From the NCBI GenBank assembly GCA_009391835.1, contig QWJF01000001.1, positions 2,726-66,725 of the forward strand: a DNA stretch of 64,000 bases, given 5' to 3'. Numbering within the stretch: position 1 is the first letter of the stretch; every line of letters begins with the position of its first letter. The notes under the pieces are model-generated. The model made no database searches and was not told the origin of the DNA. It saw nothing but the letters and a program-made list of their open reading frames with translations. Source of the stretch: Chloroflexota bacterium (GTDB taxonomy: Bacteria; Chloroflexota; Anaerolineae; Anaerolineales; UBA11579). A program made the translations under genes and the position numbers. This document shows, piece by piece, positions 32,236 to 64,000 of this stretch.

Positions 32236-33324
32236 ATGCCTGAAAACAAGCTGCCGCTCGATAGCGTCCTGCAAGGCGATTGCGTTGAGCGCCTCGCCGA
32301 ACTACCCCCCGAATCGGTTGATCTTATCTTTGCCGATCCACCCTACAACCTCCAACTCCAAAAGGAGCTGCGCCGCCCCAACAACTCCAAGGTCAATGGC
32401 GTGGACGAGGACTGGGATCGTTTTGATGATTACGCCGCCTACGATGAATTCACGCGCACCTGGCTCGCCGCCTGCCGCCGGGTGCTTAAACCAACCGGCA
32501 CGCTCTGGGTCATCGGCAGTTATCACAACATCCACCGCGTTGGCACCATGCTCCAAAACCTGGACTTCTGGATCCTCAACTCGGTAGTCTGGGTGAAGAG
32601 CAACCCCACGCCCAATTTTCGCGGCGTGCGCTTTACGAACGCTCACGAAGAACTGCTCTGGGTCCAAAAAGAGCAGGGTGCGCCTTACACCTTCAACCAT
32701 CACGCCATGAAGCAACTCAACGAAGAAAAACAAATGCGCAGTGATTGGGTTCTCCCCATCGCCAATGGACATGAACGTCTGCGCAGCAATGGGCACTCCG
32801 CACACCCCACGCAGAAACCCGAAGCGCTGCTCTATCGCGTGATCGCCTCCAGCAGCAATCCCGGCGATGTCGTCCTTGATCCCTTCTTTGGCACCGGGAC
32901 CACGGGCGCGGTGGCAAAACGCTTGCATCGCCGCTGGATCGGCATCGAACAGCAGTCTGATTACATAAAGCTTGCTAAGCAGCGCATTGCTGCGATTGTG
33001 CCCGGCGAATACGAAGAGGAAAACTATCTGAGTCACGAGCCGCGCCGTCTACCGCGCGTCCCCTTCGGGCGTCTGCTGGAATCGGACATGCTGGCTGTCG
33101 GTCAAAAGCTCTATTGGGGCGAACGCGGCCGGGAGACGGCCCGCGTCCTGGCGGACGGGGCCCTCAAGTATAATGGCCGCCGCGGTTCGATCCACCAGAT
33201 CGCAAAACACATTCAATCCGCCCCCGCCAATGGTTGGCAAACCTGGTATTTTGAAGACCCAAAAACGGGTGAGCGCCGTTCGATAGACGAACTGCGCCAG
33301 CAAATTCGCAAGATGGAGAATTAA
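32236..33324 (+). CDS. Beta-class N6-adenine DNA methyltransferase, CcrM-like (DPPY motif, C-terminal RAMA-like domain); no adjacent endonuclease
   Basis: IFADPPYNL (motif IV) precedes VLDPFFGTGTTG (motif I). This beta-class order, the length (362 aa) and the C-terminal ...GSIHQIAKHIQSAPANGWQTWYF all resemble CcrM / M.HinfI-type enzymes. Confidence 0.8.
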   Translation: MPENKLPLDSVLQGDCVERLAELPPESVDLIFADPPYNLQLQKELRRPNNSKVNGVDEDWDRFDDYAAYDEFTRTWLAACRRVLKPTGTLWVIGSYHNIHRVGTMLQNLDFWILNSVVWVKSNPTPNFRGVRFTNAHEELLWVQKEQGAPYTFNHHAMKQLNEEKQMRSDWVLPIANGHERLRSNGHSAHPTQKPEALLYRVIASSSNPGDVVLDPFFGTGTTGAVAKRLHRRWIGIEQQSDYIKLAKQRIAAIVPGEYEEENYLSHEPRRLPRVPFGRLLESDMLAVGQKLYWGERGRETARVLADGALKYNGRRGSIHQIAKHIQSAPANGWQTWYFEDPKTGERRSIDELRQQIRKMEN

Positions 33325-46460: not shown

Positions 46461-47084
46461 TTGAACCAAGAGAGACCTGATTTCGGCCCCATCCAACACC
46501 CGCTATTGATCGTCATTTCGGGACCTTCGGGCGTTGGTAAGGACAGCGTTGTGCGCGGGTTGAAAGACAGCGGGCTGCCACTGCATTTTGTCGTGACGGT
46601 GAACACGCGATCGCCGCGAGCCGATGAGAAGGAAGGAGTGGACTACATTTTTATCGGGCGCGCGGAATTTGAACGCATGCGTGAGGCGGGCGAATTACTG
46701 GAAGATGCCAAGGTGTACAACGATTACAAGGGCGTACCGCGCGAACAGGTGCGGGCGGCGATGGCCAGCGGCAAGGACGTATTGATGCGGCTGGATGTTC
46801 AGGGGGCGGAGACGATCCGGGAAGTGGCGCCCGACGCACTGTTGATCTTTTTGACCACAGCGAGCGAAGACGAGTTGATTGAACGCTTGCGGGGGCGAAA
46901 GACAGAAAGCGCTGAGGATCTGGCGCTGCGGCTGGAGACGGCCCACGAGGAATTCAGCCACTTGGACAACTTCGATTACGTGGTAGCAAATCGCGAGGAC
47001 GCCCTCGAGGAGACCGTGGCTGCAGTGGTGGGGATCATCCGGGCCGAGCACCAACGCGTGCTTCCTCGCCGAGTGCAGTTGTGA
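46461..47084 (+). CDS. gmk: Guanylate kinase
   Basis: LLIVISGPSGVGKDSV...YNDYKGVPRE.... TTG start. Confidence 0.88.
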   Translation: MNQERPDFGPIQHPLLIVISGPSGVGKDSVVRGLKDSGLPLHFVVTVNTRSPRADEKEGVDYIFIGRAEFERMREAGELLEDAKVYNDYKGVPREQVRAAMASGKDVLMRLDVQGAETIREVAPDALLIFLTTASEDELIERLRGRKTESAEDLALRLETAHEEFSHLDNFDYVVANREDALEETVAAVVGIIRAEHQRVLPRRVQL

Positions 47085-47920
47085 GCGAAATTCACGAAGA
47101 AGCGAAAAGGGAATATCCGGTCAGCCAATCGGGGGCTGAGGCCAGCGCGCCGCCCCCCGAGGCGTTGCCGCGGCGCTTCTTCGTGCGAATGCCGGAGCGA
47201 CAGCCCTACGCAGTGTGGGGGCTGCTGATCGTGACCATCGGCGTTTTCCTGCTGCAAATGCTGACTCAGAGCGGGGCGTTGGACCTGGGAAACTGTCCTT
47301 ACTTCTTTTCGCCGGACTTGCCAGCTTGTTATGGCTTGAAGGTAAATGAATTTATTGTCCGGGGCCAGTACTGGCGTCTGCTGGCGCCGATACTGTTGCA
47401 TGGGTCCCTGCTGCACGTGGGCTTCAACATGTACGCGCTGTATGTGCTGGGGCCGGAGCTTGAGCGGCACCTTGGGCACGCCTCCTTCTTGGCGCTGTAT
47501 GTGATCAGCGGATTCGCGGGTTTCGTGGTGTCGTTCCTGCTGACGCCGGCGGCTTCGTTGGGCGCGTCCACAGCAGTGTTTGGGCTGCTGGCGGCGCAGG
47601 CCGTGTTCATTTACCGTAACCAACATATCTTTGGGGAGCGGGCGCGCTTGGCACTGCGCAACATCCTGAATATCGCAGTGATTAACTTTGTGATCGGACT
47701 AAGCCCCGGGATTGACAACTGGGGGCATCTAGGTGGCTTTCTGGGGGGGGCGCTATTTGCCTGGCTGGCGGCGCCCGATTACCGGGTGGTGGGGGAAGGG
47801 CCGCAGTTTGATCTGGACGACCAGATGCCGGCGGGCCGCTACGTGGTGGCGGGGCTGGCTACAGCTATAGTGTTTGGGGCGCTGGCGGCAGTGCGTATTT
47901 GGGGTGCAGCCAGCGCGTAG
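47081..47920 (+). CDS. Rhomboid family intramembrane serine protease
   Basis: HGSLLHVGFNMYAL (HxxxN) and GASTAVFGLL (GxSxxxF). GTGA overlap with gmk. Confidence 0.85.
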   Translation: MSEIHEEAKREYPVSQSGAEASAPPPEALPRRFFVRMPERQPYAVWGLLIVTIGVFLLQMLTQSGALDLGNCPYFFSPDLPACYGLKVNEFIVRGQYWRLLAPILLHGSLLHVGFNMYALYVLGPELERHLGHASFLALYVISGFAGFVVSFLLTPAASLGASTAVFGLLAAQAVFIYRNQHIFGERARLALRNILNIAVINFVIGLSPGIDNWGHLGGFLGGALFAWLAAPDYRVVGEGPQFDLDDQMPAGRYVVAGLATAIVFGALAAVRIWGAASA

Positions 47921-58302: not shown

Positions 58303-60783
58303 ATGATGCGATTTGATCGTTTTACAGAACGTGCCCAGGAGGCCGCGCAGCGCGCAGCCGAGATTATTCAACGTTACGGGCACAACCAAATAGATACAGA
58401 ACATATTTTGCTGGCGTTGATCGAACAGCCTGAGGGCGTGATCGGCCAGTTGCTTGAGATTCTCAAGGTGGATGCCGACAACCTCAAGGAGCGGCTCGAT
58501 TACATCCTGCGCACCAGCCCGAAAGCGAACATCTTCGGCGGCGGCGCGGGACAGATCTTTATTACCCCGCGGGTCAAACGAATCATTGACCTGGCGAATG
58601 AAGAAGCCAACCGGCTCAAAGACGAATACATTTCCACCGAGCACATTTTCCTGGCGATCCTGAGCGAGCGCAGTACTCCTGCAGCGCGCCTCCTGGACGG
58701 CGCGGGCATTACCCGCGAGCGGGTATATGACTCTGTGCAGCAATTGCGCGGCGGCCAGCGTGTCACCGACCCACAAGCTGAGACGCGTTACCGTACGCTC
58801 GAAAAATACTCTCGAGACCTTACCCAAATGGCGCGCGAGGGCAAGCTGGACCCGGTGATCGGACGCGACACGGAAATTTTGCGGGTCATCCAATTGCTGT
58901 CACGGCGCACCAAGAACAACCCGGTGTTGATCGGTGAGGCGGGCGTAGGGAAAACCGCGATCGTGGAGGGCTTGGCCCAAAAGATCGCTACCAACGACAT
59001 CCCTGAAATCCTTAGTGGGAAGAAAGTGATATCGCTGGATCTGGGCGCCATGATCGCTGGCTCGCGTTTCCGCGGCGAATTTGAAGAGCGGCTCAAGGCC
59101 GCGCTGGAAGAAATCGAGCGCGCTGAGGGCGAGATCATCCTCTTTATTGACGAGCTGCATACCGTGGTGGGGGCCGGCGCGGCGCAGGGCGCGATGGACG
59201 CTTCAAACATGCTGAAGCCGGCGTTGTCACGCGGTGAACTGCACGCCATCGGTGCCACCACGTTGGACGAATACCACAAGCATATTGAGAAGGACGCGGC
59301 TTTGGAACGACGTTTCGCGCCCGTGTACGTGGAAGAGCCCAACGTGGAAGATTCGATCCAGATGCTTTTCGGGCTGCGCGACCGCTACGAAGCGCACCAC
59401 AATGTGAGCTTCTCGGATGAGTCGCTGGTTGAAGCCGTGAAGCTTTCCCACCGTTATGTGACCGACCGGCACTTGCCGGATAAGGCGATTGACCTGATGG
59501 ACGAAGCGGCTGCCAAACTGCGCGTGGCACTCTATTCGCTGCCGGACGATTTAAAAGTAATGAAAACCGAATTGGATCGACTGCAAGCCGAAGAAGAGCA
59601 GGCCGGCATTGAACGCAATTACGAGCGGGCGGCCGAGAAGAAATCGGAGCGTCTGCGCTTGAAAGAAGAATTCGACGAGAAGCGCGCCAAATGGGAAGGC
59701 GAGCACGAGCTGGATGAAGTAGTGGATGTGAACGACATTGCAGAAGTCATCGCGATGTGGACCGGTATCCCAGTAAGCCAGATGATGGAAACAGAGGCCG
59801 AAAAGCTCCTGCAGATGGAAGACCGGCTGCACGAGCGCCTGGTTGGCCAGGATGAGGCCATCGCGGCGATCTCCGACGCCATCCGTCGAGCGCGCTCGGG
59901 TTTGAAAGATCCGAAACGGCCGATTGGATCCTTTGTATTTATCGGGCCCTCAGGCGTGGGCAAGACTGAGCTGGCCAAAGCGCTGGCAGAGTTCATGTTC
60001 GACGATGAGGATGCGCTGGTGCGCATTGATATGTCCGAGTATCGCGAGCAGCACACGACGGCGCGGCTGTTTGGCGCCCCTCCGGGATACGTGGGCTATG
60101 AGGAAGGTGGCCAGCTTACCGAGGCTGTGCGCCGCCGTCCTTACCGCGTGATCCTGTTCGACGAGATCGAAAAGGCGCATCCTGATGTTTGGAACGCCCT
60201 GCTGCAAATCCTGGACGATGGCCGCCTGACCGATGGCCAGGGCCGCACCGTGGATTTCCGCAATACAGTGCTGATCATGACTAGCAACCTGGGCACGGAG
60301 TTTGTGCGCAAATCTGGCTCCCTGGGCTTTTTGGTGGACAAGGGCGACGACGAGGACCGTGCCGCGCACCAGAAGATCGAAAAAGCGCTCAAGGATACCT
60401 TCCGGCCGGAATTCCTCAACCGCATTGACGAGATCATTACCTTCTCGCCGCTTTCGGTAGACGACATGAAAGAAATCGTGGACCTGCAGATGCAGGAAGT
60501 TTCCGACCGAGTCTCCGAGCAGGGCCTGACGGTGGAATTGACCCCGGCGGCGCGCTCTTGGCTGGCAGAAGAGGGTTACGATGCGGCCTTTGGAGCACGA
60601 CCATTGAAACGGGCCTTGCAGAAACACGTGGAAAGCCCGCTTTCTAAGCAGTTGCTTGCCGGCGATTTCAAAGACGGGAATACCGTGATCGTGGATGTGG
60701 ATGAAGCCGGCGAGAATATCGTTTTCAAGAGCGGGAAATCATCCCCAGTGAAAACAGACAAGAATGCCGAGGTAGATGCGTAA
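58303..60783 (+). CDS. clpC: Clp/Hsp100 class I AAA+ chaperone, ClpC-type (two NBDs, short UVR-like middle domain)
   Basis: Clp_N repeats, [18 protein letters not shown] and a short M-domain (...[23 protein letters not shown]...). 826 aa. Confidence 0.85.
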
Positions 60784-60806
60784 GCTTCTACTCGAAATCG
60801 ATAGAG

Positions 60807-60835
60807 AAAGCGCCCGATCCAATCGGGCGCTTTTT
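60807..60835. terminator. Rho-independent terminator between clpC and the convergent VWA gene
   Basis: AAAGCGCCCGAT-CCAA-TCGGGCGCTTTTT. Confidence 0.85.
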
Positions 60836-60887
60836 GATTCTTTCGCCCTTGCACTGCATACTGCGCAACTATGTATGCAGCGCGAGT

Positions 60888-61868
60888 TCAGCCGCGGTCG
60901 ATTTCGGCCTTGACGGCACGGTAGAGATTTTCGGCTTTGAGTTCCTGGAGGGTATAGCAGGGAGCTTTGAGGTGCTCAGCGAGAGCGTTGGCGAGGCCCT
61001 GATCAAAGGCGGCGTGCTCCATGTTGATCACCACGCTGCGAATTTCCTGGTCGGCAATCTGGTCGGCAAGCAGGTGGGCCTCTTCCTGGGGGGCGACATC
61101 ATTAATGGCAACATTGCCAGCGCCGTCGGTCAGCAGGATCATGAGCGGCATTACTTCGGGGTGCAAACGTTTCTCGCGGCCGATGACTTCGTTGGCAAGG
61201 AATAAACCAGCCGAGAGCGGGGTCTTGCCCCCCACAGGGATATCCCCCAGGGCGCGCTGGGCGAGTTGTACGGAATTGGTGGGAGACAAAATGAGGTTGG
61301 CGCGATCCTTTTGGAAGACGACCAGGCCCACGCGATCGCGGCGCTGGTAGGCATCGGTGAGCAAAGAGAGGATGGCGCCCTTGGTGGCGGCCATGCGCTC
61401 CGCCACGGCCATGGACCAGGAGGCATCCACCACGAAAAGCACCAGATTGGCGGCGCGGCGGACGCGCACCTTGCGCTGGAGATCCTGCTTTTCGATGGCG
61501 AAGGCGACATCTTTGCGTTGCTCAGCGCGGTTCACCTGATGGGGCGCGGCGGCGCGTAGGGTGGCGTCGAAGGCGATATCGCGATCCTGAGCGCGGGCGG
61601 GCCGAGCCTGGATATAGCGGCCGCGTTTGCGATCCGTGCGGGTGCGCGAGCGCCGGCCGCTCTGCCGGCGGGTGATCTTATCGAGCGGATTATCAATTTT
61701 GCGGGGAGCGAATTCTTCGGTGGGGTTGACCTGCTGGCCGCCATCCCACCAACGGGCATCACCGGATTCAAAGACTTCTTGCGGGCTTGGCTCTACCGGC
61801 CCATTCTGTTCCTGCGTCTCACTGATGCGCGGATTTAGGTCGTCTTTTTTTTTACGGGCTCCGGCTCG
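60888..61868 (-). CDS. ChlD/BchD-type linker + VWA (integrin-I-like) domain ORF; frame open from 61868, with no ATG/GTG/TTG before the GTG at 61535
   Basis: VWA MIDAS motif VVDASWSM. The ChlD-type motif FDATLRAAAPHQ is encoded at 61536-61571, upstream of the first canonical start. The frame is bounded by TGA at 61869-61871. Confidence 0.75.
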   Translation of the reverse strand, partial: RAGARKKKDDLNPRISETQEQNGPVEPSPQEVFESGDARWWDGGQQVNPTEEFAPRKIDNPLDKITRRQSGRRSRTRTDRKRGRYIQARPARAQDRDIAFDATLRAAAPHQVNRAEQRKDVAFAIEKQDLQRKVRVRRAANLVLFVVDASWSMAVAERMAATKGAILSLLTDAYQRRDRVGLVVFQKDRANLILSPTNSVQLAQRALGDIPVGGKTPLSAGLFLANEVIGREKRLHPEVMPLMILLTDGAGNVAINDVAPQEEAHLLADQIADQEIRSVVINMEHAAFDQGLANALAEHLKAPCYTLQELKAENLYRAVKAEIDRG

Positions 61869-62941
61869 TCACCGGCTTCGGGGCTGGGCTCGGCTTCGCC
61901 CTGGGTGGCGGCCTGGCCCTGGAGTTCGGAAATGCGCTCCTCGAGTTCAGTGACCGTGACCTCAGCCTGGTTGAAAGGGCCGCGCTTGATGCGGTGGGCG
62001 AGGGCCAGTTCTGCGGCGATGGCAATATCCAGATCGCTAATTTGCTTGCGGCCATCGAAAGCTGCCTGGGCGCGCGCCGCCTTAAGGATGACCAGATCGC
62101 CGCGATGGCCGTCCACGTGCAGGGACGAGGTAAGCGCGGCTATGGAAATGAGATCGCGTGAGGTGTAGCTGATTTTCTCGATGAGTTCCCGGGCGGCCAT
62201 GATCTTCTCGGCCAGTTCCTCTTCTTTGGGGAACCACTCCTTATAAAAGGCTTCTGCGTCGGCTTCAAAGGCCAAATTGCGCTCCATGATCTGGACGCGT
62301 TGGCGCGAATCGCGGATGCCGCGAATTTCCACAGCGAGCGCGAAGCGATCGAGAAGCTGCGGGCGAAGGTCGCCCTCTTCGGGGTTCATGGTGCCGATAA
62401 GAATGAAGCGGGCGGGGTGGGTGAAGGAAATGCCCTCCCGTTCGACAATGTTAATGCCCATCGCGGCGGAATCGAGCAGGAGGTCTACGACGTGATCGTC
62501 GAGGAGATTGACCTCGTCAATGTAGAGCAGGCCTCGGTTGGCGCCAGCGAGGACGCCGGGATCAAAATGGCGTTCTCCCTTTTTGATGGCGCGTTCGATA
62601 TCCAGGGTGCCGACCACGCGATCTTCGGTGGCGCTGACGGGGAGATCGACAAAGCTGATCTTGCGCTTGGCAATATCCAGCTTGCCATTTGCTGCTTGCC
62701 GCTCACGGACCCAATCGGACCAGGTCTCGGGGGCGTTCGGGTCGTCGTTGAAGGGCGATTCAGCGAAAACTTCAATCTCGGGGAGCAGGGCTGCTAGGGC
62801 GCGGGCGGCTGTGGATTTGGCAGTGCCGCGCTCGCCGCGGATGAGCACCCCGCCGATGCGCTGATCGATGGCGTTAAGGGTCAGCGCCCGCTTCATGCGT
62901 TCCTGCCCAACGATGGCTGTAAAGGGATAAATGGCCTGCAT
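61835..62941 (-). CDS. ChlI/BchI-type AAA+ ATPase (Mg-chelatase I-subunit family)
   Basis: YPFTAIVGQERMKRAL...VLIRGERGTAKST...YIDEVNLL...ARFILIGTMNPEEG... Confidence 0.88.
   Translation of the reverse strand: MQAIYPFTAIVGQERMKRALTLNAIDQRIGGVLIRGERGTAKSTAARALAALLPEIEVFAESPFNDDPNAPETWSDWVRERQAANGKLDIAKRKISFVDLPVSATEDRVVGTLDIERAIKKGERHFDPGVLAGANRGLLYIDEVNLLDDHVVDLLLDSAAMGINIVEREGISFTHPARFILIGTMNPEEGDLRPQLLDRFALAVEIRGIRDSRQRVQIMERNLAFEADAEAFYKEWFPKEEELAEKIMAARELIEKISYTSRDLISIAALTSSLHVDGHRGDLVILKAARAQAAFDGRKQISDLDIAIAAELALAHRIKRGPFNQAEVTVTELEERISELQGQAATQGEAEPSPEAGDEPEPVKKKTT
61845..61853 (-). other. A9 homopolymer containing the -1 slippery heptamer A_AAA_AAG at the end of the ChlI-like ORF
   Basis: mRNA sense reads GAG CCC GUA AAA AAA AAG ACG ACC UAA. 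The -1 frame reads CGU AAA AAA AAA GAC GAC CUA... and continues into the VWA ORF. Confidence 0.6.
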
Positions 62942-62996
62942 TAGAAATCGATTATGTATGAATTTTCTCGAACGAGGGGCAATCTTATCACATAGG

Positions 62997-63025
62997 TTGT
63001 CAAGTGCCTCCTAAGACCTTATAAT
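62997..63025 (+). promoter_or_regulatory. Putative sigma70-type promoter of rpsA (TTGTCA-17-TATAAT)
   Basis: -35 TTGTCA at 62997-63002, a 17-nt spacer, and -10 TATAAT at 63020-63025. It lies about 35 nt upstream of the GGAG SD and ATG. Confidence 0.55.
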
Positions 63026-63059
63026 ACACGCCATCTTATTGACTGGAGTTACAAACTAT

Positions 63060-64000
63060 ATGGAGCAAAACGATCCCCCAATGAATGGGGAGGAGGCCGC
63101 GGAGAAGCAAGAGGAACCAAAGAACCAAAACACCGGCCTTTCAATGGAAGACCTGCTTAACATGGGGGACTTGAACCTTGATATGCCAAAACAGGGCGAG
63201 GTTCGTACTGGCACAATCGCGAGCATTAGCGACAACGAAATACTGGTAAGCATTGGTGCAAAATCTGAAGGGTTGATTCCCTCCAGAGAGCTAGACCAGA
63301 TGAGCGACGAAGAACGCGCCGGGTTGAAACTCGGTGACGATATTGAAGTCTACGTCGTAAGCCCCGAAAGCCAACGCGGAACCGTGCTGCTTTCTTATAC
63401 GCGCTCGCTTGAAGAGGGCGATTGGGAAGAAGCCGAGAATCTGTTGAAATCCAAGGACCCTTACGAAGGCACTGTGGATGGCTTCAACAAGGGTGGCCTG
63501 ATCGTGCGCCTTGGACGTCTGCGCGGCTTCGTGCCAGCATCGCAGGTGAGCCAGGCGCGCCGTATGCGCTACCAGGGCGATACGCCTGAACAGCGCTGGG
63601 GTGAAATGAAGGGCGAACCTTTGGTTGCGCGCGTAATTGAGGTGGATCGCGAACGCCGGCGATTGATCCTGTCTGAGCGAGCCGCATCGCAGGAATCGCG
63701 CGAGGCGATGAAAGACAAACTACTGGAAGAACTGGGCGTTGGCGAGACCCGAACAGGCCGCGTAACCAGCCTGGCGGATTTTGGCGCTTTCGTGAATATC
63801 AACGGCGCAGACGGCCTCGTTCACCTTTCCGAACTTTCCTGGGAACGCGTGGACCACCCGAGCGAAATGCTGGCTGTAGGTGACGAAGTTAAAGTTAAAG
63901 TGATCAGCGTGGATTACGACCGCAAACGCATCGGACTCTCACTGCGACAATTGCAAAATGATCCCTGGGAAGATCACATCCACGAATACAAAGTGGGTCA
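63060..64000 (+). CDS. rpsA: 30S ribosomal protein S1, 3'-truncated by the window edge
   Basis: Repeated S1 domains (GEVRTGTIASISDNEILVSIG..., GTVDGFNKGGLIVRLG..RGFVPASQ, GRVTSLADFGAFVNINGADGLVHLSE). The frame stays open to the end of the window. Confidence 0.9.
   Translation, partial: MEQNDPPMNGEEAAEKQEEPKNQNTGLSMEDLLNMGDLNLDMPKQGEVRTGTIASISDNEILVSIGAKSEGLIPSRELDQMSDEERAGLKLGDDIEVYVVSPESQRGTVLLSYTRSLEEGDWEEAENLLKSKDPYEGTVDGFNKGGLIVRLGRLRGFVPASQVSQARRMRYQGDTPEQRWGEMKGEPLVARVIEVDRERRRLILSERAASQESREAMKDKLLEELGVGETRTGRVTSLADFGAFVNINGADGLVHLSELSWERVDHPSEMLAVGDEVKVKVISVDYDRKRIGLSLRQLQNDPWEDHIHEYKVG

Follow-up and report, generated by a model that had tools for sequence, protein, structure and literature searches.

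Results

Organization of the locus

The locus lies in the window, by which is meant the whole 64-kb stretch of DNA analyzed, and comprises an open reading frame encoding a ChlI-like AAA+ ATPase (ORF1) and, in the -1 frame relative to it, a continuation encoding a linker and a VWA domain (Table 1). Translation of ORF1 under standard decoding yielded the 368 residues, the stop codon and the C-terminal end ...EPVKKKTT* reported in the earlier note. The I/D boundary is marked by a run of nine A residues, the sole A/T homopolymer of at least eight bases in the window, and the TAA stop of ORF1 follows seven bases past it. The positions given previously for the run, for the TGA that opens the -1 frame and for the end of that frame were reproduced. 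The -1 frame is uninterrupted as described, with the length corrected from 327 codons to 326 sense codons. It overlaps ORF1 by 34 nt with the A-run inside the overlap, and the product proposed to join the ChlI-like domain, linker and VWA domain in one D-type protein has 684 residues rather than ~690, of which the first 366 are identical to those of the short product.

Table 1. Positions of the features of the chlD-like locus within the 64-kb window.
Feature	Position	Strand	Remarks
ORF1, ChlI-like AAA+ ATPase, 368 aa, standard decoding	61835..62941	-	stop TAA 61835-61837; GenBank MQC25887.1
Walker A, GERGTAKST	62810-62836	-	in ORF1
Walker B, LLYIDEVN	62507-62530	-	in ORF1
TGA opening the -1 frame	61869..61871	-	five codons (RAGAR) ahead of KKK and the run; frame reading
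GGAG	61859..61862	-	8 nt upstream of the heptamer; read from sequence; not a conserved family feature
A9 run, slippage and shift site of the I/D boundary	61845..61853	-	read from sequence
Heptamer A_AAA_AAG, in the phase of ORF1	61844..61850	-	zero-frame reading GTA AAA AAA AAG
-1-frame continuation (KKK-DDLNPR...)	60888..61853	-	acidic then Arg-rich linker, AAPxQ motif, VWA domain; stop 60888-60890
IAFDATLRAAAPHQ motif (AAPxQ) of D-type subunits	61536..61577	-	precedes the first canonical start
VWA / integrin-I-like domain	60990..61442	-	Pfam VWA_2, VWA; PDB 2x31_A
MIDAS motif, DASWS	61413-61427	-	within the VWA domain
LLTDG	61122-61136	-	within the VWA domain
14-bp GC-rich hairpin between convergent chlD-like and ClpC-like genes	60805..60835	.	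scored on the + strand

In the -1 frame the earliest canonical start codon (ATG, GTG or TTG) is the GTG at 61535, located 111 codons in and directly after the conserved AAPxQ motif. Upstream of this codon the frame contains only the near-cognates ATC and ATT, in agreement with the earlier note. Only a -1 shift or the insertion of one A gives access to the -1-frame continuation. In GenBank the VWA half is filed as a separate gene, MQC25886.1, encoding 262 residues from an ATC codon at 61676.

Since shuffles of the 64 kb gave an expectation of 0.82 occurrences of A8G, the A-run alone is not evidence of recoding; its significance derives from the position inside the 34-nt overlap together with the conservation in relatives described below. 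The pure-A tract is also not an effect of codon usage, since the Lys codons AAG and AAA are used about equally by the genes of the window (153 versus 133). Off-frame stops occur in the gene at a frequency of 0.024 per codon. The hairpin following the gene is likely a terminator shared with the convergent ClpC-like gene. The reverse-strand tail of this hairpin reads TTTCT.

Family assignment of the two reading frames

ORF1 matched the Pfam families Mg_chelatase, AAA_5 and AAA_lid_2 and covered positions 1-348 of the NCBIfam profile TIGR02442. Residues 14-307 of the -1 ORF covered positions 354-640 of the same profile, directly continuing the match of ORF1, and the joined protein aligned as a single stretch from 1 to 640 of 641 positions. 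This comparison supports a coding role for the start-less stretch, about 330 nt which in the earlier note appeared to be coding, the profile match continuing across it. The AAPxQ family (PF26791) was present in homologues according to precomputed Pfam matches. The anatomy is that of a programmed-frameshift chlD (fs-chlD) gene, with an AAA+ ORF and a shifted-frame linker and VWA domain that jointly match one D-type profile.

The score of the joined protein against TIGR02442 ('putative cobaltochelatase') was 751.8 bits, just under the curated cut-off of 779.45 in spite of the full-length alignment. Scores of 433.6 bits against TIGR02031 (BchD/ChlD) and 424.4 bits against TIGR02030 (BchI/ChlI) were under the equivalog cut-offs of 499.55 and 466.95, respectively, as was the score of 426.6 bits for ORF1 alone against TIGR02030. 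Since all of these scores are under the cut-offs, the role of the fused protein as a chelatase subunit is only putative. ORF1 aligned with BchI/BchD and ChlI/ChlD structures (PDB 1g8p, 2x31, 6l8d and 8osf) over the full AAA+ module with E values from 1e-104, obtained with ChlI 6l8d, to 5e-98, and the VWA part aligned with the C-terminal integrin-I domain of BchD (2x31_A) with an E value of 4e-19; at the level of sequence the resemblance to ChlI/BchD is unambiguous. The motifs of the Mg-chelatase subunits are present, namely Walker A, Walker B and an integrin-I/VWA domain with a MIDAS of the form DxSxS and LLTDG (Table 1). Unlike the Mg-chelatase subunits, each of which has its own gene and start codon, the two domains here share a gene region without chlorophyll genes or an H subunit nearby. 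The ~40 ORFs of the window included neither a large subunit (ORF of at least 1,200 residues) nor any Pfam family related to tetrapyrroles or cobalamin, which bears out the earlier remark that an H/CobN-type subunit is not adjacent, and cobN/chlH or tetrapyrrole genes were likewise not seen within 10 kb on either side of the locus in 7 relatives.

Conservation of the A-run and frame offset in relatives

The comparison with orthologs proposed in the earlier note, in which a normal start codon and the lack of an A-run would have spoken against recoding, was carried out and the outcome favors recoding. The genome set consisted of 43 species-representative loci in the -1 configuration, mostly from Anaerolineae/Chloroflexota and with 50-84% amino-acid identity; counts out of 44 given below are these loci plus the window. 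A metagenome set also contained 43 loci in the -1 configuration. The -1 offset with an A-run at the I/D boundary was common to all of these, about 86 loci in which some of the metagenome contigs are the same as those of the genome set. The run ranged from A7 to A10 among the genome loci and reached A13 (locus L108) among the metagenome loci, in flanks that were otherwise variable. The run was at least A9 in 37 of the 43 genome loci (38/44 with the window). The zero-frame stop was located 0-22 nt past the run in 43/43 loci of the genome set, the only set in which this distance was measured. No ATG, GTG or TTG preceded the end of the run in the -1 frame of 39/43 genome loci, the first start after the run was located from 1 to 138 codons downstream at positions that are not conserved among the 43 loci, and in many loci the tblastn matches in the -1 frame start at the run itself. 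These results place within the overlap a conserved A-rich slippery site followed by a frame lacking an independent start, as is characteristic of fs-chlD genes.

The heptamer A_AAA_AAG was in phase in 24/44 loci of the -1 configuration. All A7 and A8 runs were in the phase giving A_AAA_AAA, the three A7 runs in phase 2 and the three A8 runs in phase 1, each set representing only about two independent lineages. The A9 runs were spread over all three phases (16, 7 and 6 loci).

Loci in the -1 configuration outnumbered those in which the two parts are in frame by 43 to 1-2 in the genome set and by 43 to 5 in the metagenome set, and two +1 loci were found in the comparative set. Eight distinct in-frame relatives keep A9 or A10 at the junction, and gaining or losing one A there would truncate their product at residue 360-381; the tract is thus kept regardless of which product is made by default. 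In this respect the two nearest relatives identified differ from each other. The metagenome locus L074 (90% amino-acid identity) carries A9 in the phase seen in the window and is in the -1 configuration, whereas L064 (~90%) has A10 and is in frame, the one A being the only indel between L064 and the window in 2,055 aligned columns. NCBI, ENA and Logan assemblies all contain the identical 368-residue ORF1. Stand-alone chlI and chlD pairs were found in more distant taxa, for example at loci L044-L049 and L059.

Sequence context of the shift site

The predicted fold downstream of the run in the window was no more stable than that of shuffles for either 60 nt (z = +0.35) or 100 nt (z = -0.55), so the downstream stimulatory RNA secondary structure usual for fs-chlD signals (PMC9227772) is lacking there. 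The downstream 60-nt segments of the orthologs had, as a group, a mean z of -1.27 with 19% below -2, which is a tendency only. No significant structure was found upstream, where z was -1.11 for the window and averaged -0.15 over the orthologs. A hairpin in the nascent RNA at that position is a feature of some transcriptional-slippage sites. A scan of 60500-63500 against Rfam gave no match at E <= 1, and a search of the window for tRNA-Lys, which would bear on how readily A_AAA_AAG slips, returned one tRNA-Leu only.

The earlier note had likened the site to that of dnaX. The likeness holds for the heptamer, which is in phase, and for the presence of GGAG 8 nt upstream, and fails for the conservation of GGAG and for a stimulatory structure. 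SD-like cores upstream of the heptamer showed no positional enrichment in the 43 orthologous loci, and a dnaX-type cassette is not supported, given the unenriched GGAG spacing and the lack of a hairpin in the window.

Discussion

Recoding of chlD/Mg-chelatase genes has been published, including reporter tests of poly-A cassettes and, from Chloroflexi, members that lack the large subunit (Antonov et al. 2013, PMC3711429; Atkins et al. 2016, PMC5009743; Kuznetsov et al. 2022, PMC9227772). The locus is a further member of this fs-chlD class and not a discovery, since the frameshift trick of chlD genes has been described since 2013, and the novelty implied in the earlier note does not stand. A 2020 article by Antonov in Mol Biol Evol is reportedly also concerned with programmed-frameshift chlD genes. 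The locus resembles published members in the overlap of ChlI-like and VWA ORFs with a -1 offset, in the A_AAA_AAR or poly-A sequence at the I/D boundary, in the predicted origin of the short product by termination and the long product by frameshifting, and in the occurrence in Chloroflexi (Herpetosiphon and Anaerolineae). Purifying selection on A_AAA_AAR has been reported (PMC5009743). The locus is unlike them in the lack of a significant downstream RNA structure in the window, in the score of the fused protein just under the TIGR02442 cut-off and in the annotation as two separate genes, and the gene itself does not figure in the articles consulted.

The anatomy of the locus and the conservation of the shift site are direct observations. 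We infer from the offset and A-run common to about 86 loci, the lack of a conserved start and the continuous profile match that two proteins would be produced here, as the earlier note had suggested. We assign a probability of roughly 0.85 to the reading that this is one fs-chlD gene with two products, a 368-residue ChlI-like and a 684-residue ChlD-like protein, the latter made by a -1 shift at A9. Standard decoding would end at the TAA past the run and yield the ChlI-like ATPase, while a fraction of expression events would shift by -1 on the run, either by the ribosome slipping back one base on A_AAA_AAG, by the RNA polymerase adding one A to give A10, or by both routes. Reading after the shift would take in the linker, followed by the AAPxQ motif and the VWA/MIDAS domain. 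The trans-frame junction peptide ...EPVKKKDDLNPR... is predicted alike by -1 ribosomal slippage and by a transcript with one added A, whereas a form with two Lys, ...EPVKKDDLNPR..., would be expected solely from transcripts short of two A residues.

Four alternatives to the fs-chlD reading were weighed. The most credible of them, that a homopolymer was miscalled and the true genome has A10 in a plain in-frame chlD of 684 residues, is highly unlikely. The single-indel difference from L064 could reflect an error in either of the two assemblies, and in-frame relatives with A9 or A10 exist; against this, the -1 configuration is the majority in two independent collections, L074 shares it with A9, the same ORF1 was recovered in three sets of assemblies, and two products would be predicted even with A10, given the retained run and the off-frame stops close to it. 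Only a slim chance is given to phase variation at the DNA level, in which A9 and A10 interchange within populations and switch the default between short and long products. The in-frame and -1 states are scattered over close relatives, implying at least about five switches, and the near-identical metagenome sequences L096, L098, L099, L102 and L103 vary in the lengths of both A- and G-runs. Each state is, however, constant between independent samples in the cases open to checking, P0015 having the same sequence in 7 contigs drawn from several samples, and the switches look evolutionary rather than clonal since the sequences that differ are otherwise 10-30% diverged.

That the locus is two ordinary genes, the VWA protein having its own start (GTG 61535 or ATC 61676) or arising from re-initiation past the stop of ORF1, is very improbable. 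This is the arrangement annotated in GenBank, and it has a parallel in the stand-alone pairs of more distant taxa. It does not account for the 111 start-less codons that are conserved as protein and align with TIGR02442 from position 354, for the location of the GTG directly behind a conserved motif, for the 39/43 orthologs with no start before the run and unconserved starts thereafter, or for the matches that begin at the run. Least credible, with next to no chance, is a decaying pseudogene in which a frameshift mutation killed an ancestral in-frame chlD; the interruption is at a mutation-prone homopolymer, but both halves are intact with 60-90% identity and without further stops or indels, and the same site is interrupted in about 86 loci.

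Within the fs-chlD reading, the chance that the RNA polymerase is mainly responsible for the shift is put at somewhat under even. Reiteration on T9 would produce mRNAs with A8, A9, A10 and so on, of which those with A10 (and A7) would encode the long protein in plain frame. The earlier remark that A9 is also a site for transcriptional slippage is apt. An A9 run drives transcriptional slippage in the dnaX gene of Thermus thermophilus (as cited in PMC3711429), where the tract likewise lies between the shared and optional parts of an AAA+ protein, and that mode fits the phase independence of the long runs among the chlD-like orthologs. Also in favor of the polymerase are the conservation of run length rather than context, the retention of the run in in-frame relatives, and the lack of a ribosome-stimulating hairpin in the window and of a conserved SD-like element. 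Moreover, the output of Mg-chelatase fs-gene cassettes in E. coli reporters climbs with the length of the run, 7, 9 and 11 A residues giving 10, 40 and 63% frameshift product (PMC3711429). Several results favor the ribosome instead. The short A7 and A8 runs of the relatives, a point of difference from T. thermophilus dnaX, are all in the phase for tandem-tRNA slippage (3/3 each, from about two lineages each), the in-phase A_AAA_AAG recurs in 24/44 loci, and the folds of the orthologs are stronger downstream (mean z -1.27) than upstream (-0.15), a pattern expected of ribosomal stimulators and not of slippage by the RNA polymerase. For comparison, E. coli dnaX uses the same heptamer in phase for a -1 ribosomal frameshift and produces short (gamma) and long (tau) AAA+ forms with a common N-terminus that assemble in one complex, as is predicted here. 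The polarity is reversed, the frameshift in dnaX yielding the short product, and dnaX relies on an SD-like sequence ahead of the heptamer and a hairpin behind it, in contrast to the unconserved GGAG and the lack of a hairpin in the window.

By homology to BchI/BchD, the 368- and 684-residue products may co-assemble in a mixed AAA+ ring complex. The client may be a CobN whose gene lies outside the window, or a target that is not a tetrapyrrole chelatase. Some published fs-chlD members come without chlH/cobN and without a pathway for B12 or chlorophyll, and their function is given as unknown; Chloroflexi genes lacking the large subunit are among those described (PMC9227772). A tentative and rather doubtful extension is that the Anaerolineae-type I/D pair is a stand-alone AAA+/VWA-MIDAS machine that acts on a non-tetrapyrrole client without CobN/ChlH, and that the poly-A tract is a two-way slippage device whose default product has flipped repeatedly between the A9 and A10 states. 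Such flips would be tolerable because slippage would supply the other product in either state.

The finding matters for annotation. The gene and dozens of orthologs from Chloroflexota metagenome-assembled genomes are filed as 'magnesium chelatase' plus 'VWA domain-containing protein' and should each be a single recoded chlD-type gene. For the biology, little is added beyond the published work on fs-chlD. The comparative set, with about 86 loci in the -1 configuration, eight in-frame loci that keep the tract and two +1 loci, is material for two questions already flagged in the literature, namely the role of the I/D pair without a large subunit and the respective parts of the ribosome and the RNA polymerase in the shift.

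Overlapping frames at the A9 run

The ChlI-like AAA+ frame (ORF1) and the VWA-encoding frame (the -1 ORF) overlap at the only homopolymer of A or T of at least 8 bases in the window; the only other homopolymer of that length is a G8 run within a rhomboid-family ORF. Since the chance expectation of A8G anywhere in 64 kb is 0.82, the A9 run matters only through its position and conservation. The first ATG, GTG or TTG in the -1 frame is its codon 112, the GTG at 61535.

Features of the window and of related loci (L numbers, on genome or metagenome contigs, in their own coordinates)
Feature	Position	Strand	Remarks
ORF1	62941-61835	-	ATG start, 368 aa; 3' end ...GAG CCC GTA AAA AAA AAG ACG ACC TAA
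A9 run	61853-61845	-	
TGA closing the -1 frame	61871-61869	-	RAGAR-KKK-DDLNPR... reads on from there
-1 ORF	to stop 60890-60888	-	326 codons (frame translation)
GGAG	61862-61859	-	8 nt 5' of in-phase A_AAA_AAG
Ribosomal-protein-S1-like gene	63060 to window end	+	divergent from chlD-like gene
ClpC-type ATPase	58303-60783	+	convergent with chlD-like gene
DUF389 protein			neighbour of chlD-like gene
Hairpin	60805-60835		14 bp, GC-rich, A/T runs either side
Sigma-70-like promoter	62997-63025	+	TTGTCA, 17-nt spacer, TATAAT; 11/12
G8 run	47743-47750		in rhomboid-family ORF 47081-47920
N6/N4 DNA methylase	32236-33324	+	C-terminal RAMA domain
In-frame relative L064	3001-5055		
In-frame relative L065	10001-12046		
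In-frame relative L067	10001-12043		
In-frame relative L070	10001-12067		
In-frame relative L071	10001-12073		
In-frame relative L072	10001-12070		
In-frame relative L073	8010-10073		
In-frame relative L029			
Transporter locus in L071	16522-19492		

A domain profile search matched ORF1 to Mg_chelatase, AAA_5 and AAA_lid_2 and the -1 ORF to VWA_2 and VWA, and the Walker A, Walker B, AAPxQ and MIDAS DxSxS motifs were all found in the frames. The nearest solved structures were ChlI/BchI (E ~1e-104) and the BchD integrin-I domain (E = 4e-19). The NCBIfam profile TIGR02442 ("putative cobaltochelatase", 641 positions) was matched at 1-348 by ORF1 and at 354-640 by the -1 ORF, and the 684-aa protein joined at the run (...EPVKKK/DDLNPR...) aligned to positions 1-640 in a single stretch with 751.8 bits, slightly short of the curated cut-off of 779.45. 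The joined protein also scored under the BchD (433.6 vs 499.55) and BchI (424.4 vs 466.95) cut-offs. Since the -1 ORF continues the profile match of ORF1, the 111 start-less codons are coding, in agreement with the earlier note, to which this 330-nt stretch appeared to be coding. The GenBank entry for the contig, a Chloroflexota MAG, holds two genes, with the VWA gene begun at ATC 61676; the deposited protein (MQC25886.1) begins MTRRQSG... where the frame itself reads ITRRQSG, which suggests that no proper start could be found for it in annotation.

Conservation of the -1 configuration and of the tract

One genome per species was scanned with ORF1, yielding 63 loci, mostly from Anaerolineae and other Chloroflexota MAGs. 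With the joined protein as tblastn query, 43 of these showed the VWA part shifted to the -1 frame relative to the N-terminal part; among close relatives only L029 was clearly in frame. All 43 have an A7-A10 run a few codons 5' of the ORF1 stop, with the zero-frame stop 0-22 nt past the run; nucleotides on either side and residues of the linker vary freely. The off-frame stop frequency in the window gene is just 0.024 per codon. No canonical start preceded the run end in the -1 frame in 39 of the 43, and the first start past the run lay 1 to 138 codons downstream, depending on the locus. An independent scan of metagenome contigs, partly the same as those of the genome set, gave 43 further -1 loci (A7-A13, the A13 run in L108), 5 in-frame loci with A9 or A10, and 2 in +1. 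Of the two nearest relatives detected, L074 (90% aa identity) matches the window in both run length (A9) and phase. Five closely related metagenome sequences (L096, L098, L099, L102 and L103) vary in the A-run and the adjoining G-run (A9GGG, A10GG, A10GGG), two of them scoring as +1; these differences may reflect either genuine instability of the tract or noise from assembly.

Searching a protein database with the joined protein as query gave over 120 proteins of 645-736 aa, each from a single ORF and mainly 665-701 aa long, at 62-89% identity; of 120 compared, 87 have KKK at the junction. All eight distinct in-frame genes with DNA examined have A9 or A10 at the I/D junction, where gain or loss of one A would truncate the product at residue 360-381. 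A distance tree scatters the in-frame genes among those in the -1 configuration, which would require at least about five switches. Between the window gene and that of L064, at 82.4% nucleotide identity, the one indel is a single A in the run.

These results indicate that the feature is real and conserved. The earlier note's interpretation as recoding at the A-run was right: a kept offset and tract is the outcome it had named in favour of recoding, and orthologs with normal starts and no conserved A-run, which it had named as evidence against, were not seen. The probability of recoding as such at the window locus is put at about 0.85.

Ribosomal versus transcriptional slippage

The heptamer A_AAA_AAG is in phase in 24 of 44 loci, including the window, and the A7 and A8 runs (3/3 each, each set about two independent lineages) are in phase giving A_AAA_AAA. 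The 60-nt segments downstream of the run in orthologs fold as a group better than shuffles (mean z -1.27, 19% below -2), and the upstream segments show no such advantage (mean z -0.15). Taken from sequence, the phase and downstream folding would favour a ribosomal contribution. A transcriptional contribution would be favoured by run length being the conserved variable (mostly at least A9, maximum A13), by A9 runs in all three phases, by the tract in in-frame genes, and by reporter yields that rise with run length (63, 40 and 10% for 11, 9 and 7 A's; PMC3711429). In the window itself neither the segments 3' of the run (z = +0.35 and -0.55) nor that 5' of it (z = -1.11) show significant structure, and no SD-like element upstream is conserved, which would also speak for transcription. 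Given recoding, a predominantly transcriptional route is possible, at slightly below even odds.

Neighbourhood

The order S1/chlD/ClpC(/RadA) recurs in the window and 6 of 7 relatives examined (L064-L073), often with RadA beside; no functional link to these neighbours was evident. The ClpC-like and chlD-like genes converge on the hairpin, which probably serves both as a bidirectional terminator. The near-consensus promoter in the 118-bp divergent intergenic region faces the S1-like gene, and no comparable match was found on the minus strand for the chlD-like gene. No CobN/ChlH-sized ORF was found in the window, nor tetrapyrrole or cobalamin synthesis members among ~40 scanned ORFs. In a single case, L071, the in-frame chlD-like gene is followed at a distance of ~4.5 kb by a Fur-family regulator together with an ECF cobalt/nickel-type transporter (CbiM/CbiQ/ABC). 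No restriction enzyme adjoining the DNA methylase was identified in scanned window ORFs. Brevefilum fermentans, also of the Chloroflexi, has a programmed-frameshift chlD (fs-chlD) gene without a large subunit or a B12 or chlorophyll pathway, and the function of I/D pairs lacking a large subunit was stated to be unknown (Kuznetsov et al. 2022, PMC9227772).

Relation to known recoding systems

A Mg-chelatase cluster of 23 -1 frameshift genes, Herpetosiphon included, was validated by reporter (PMC3711429), A_AAA_AAR is reviewed as under purifying selection there (PMC5009743), and Chloroflexi fs-chlD cases are published (PMC9227772), the concept of "two subunits from one gene" being that of Antonov 2020 as cited there. 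The window gene has the defining features of this class save downstream structure. The likeness to dnaX drawn earlier holds for the in-phase heptamer and the long/short AAA+ logic; the polarity is reversed, and the accessory signals of dnaX, downstream structure and a conserved SD-like element, are absent. The window gene is an additional, wrongly annotated member of a recoding family already known, and the only aspects not found in the accessible literature, Antonov 2020 lying outside it, are that in-frame relatives keep the tract and that the polarity has switched repeatedly. Since in-frame genes also hold A9 or A10 and a single-A change truncates them, the comparison argues that the tract is kept whichever product is the default, and that its role would be to supply the second product.
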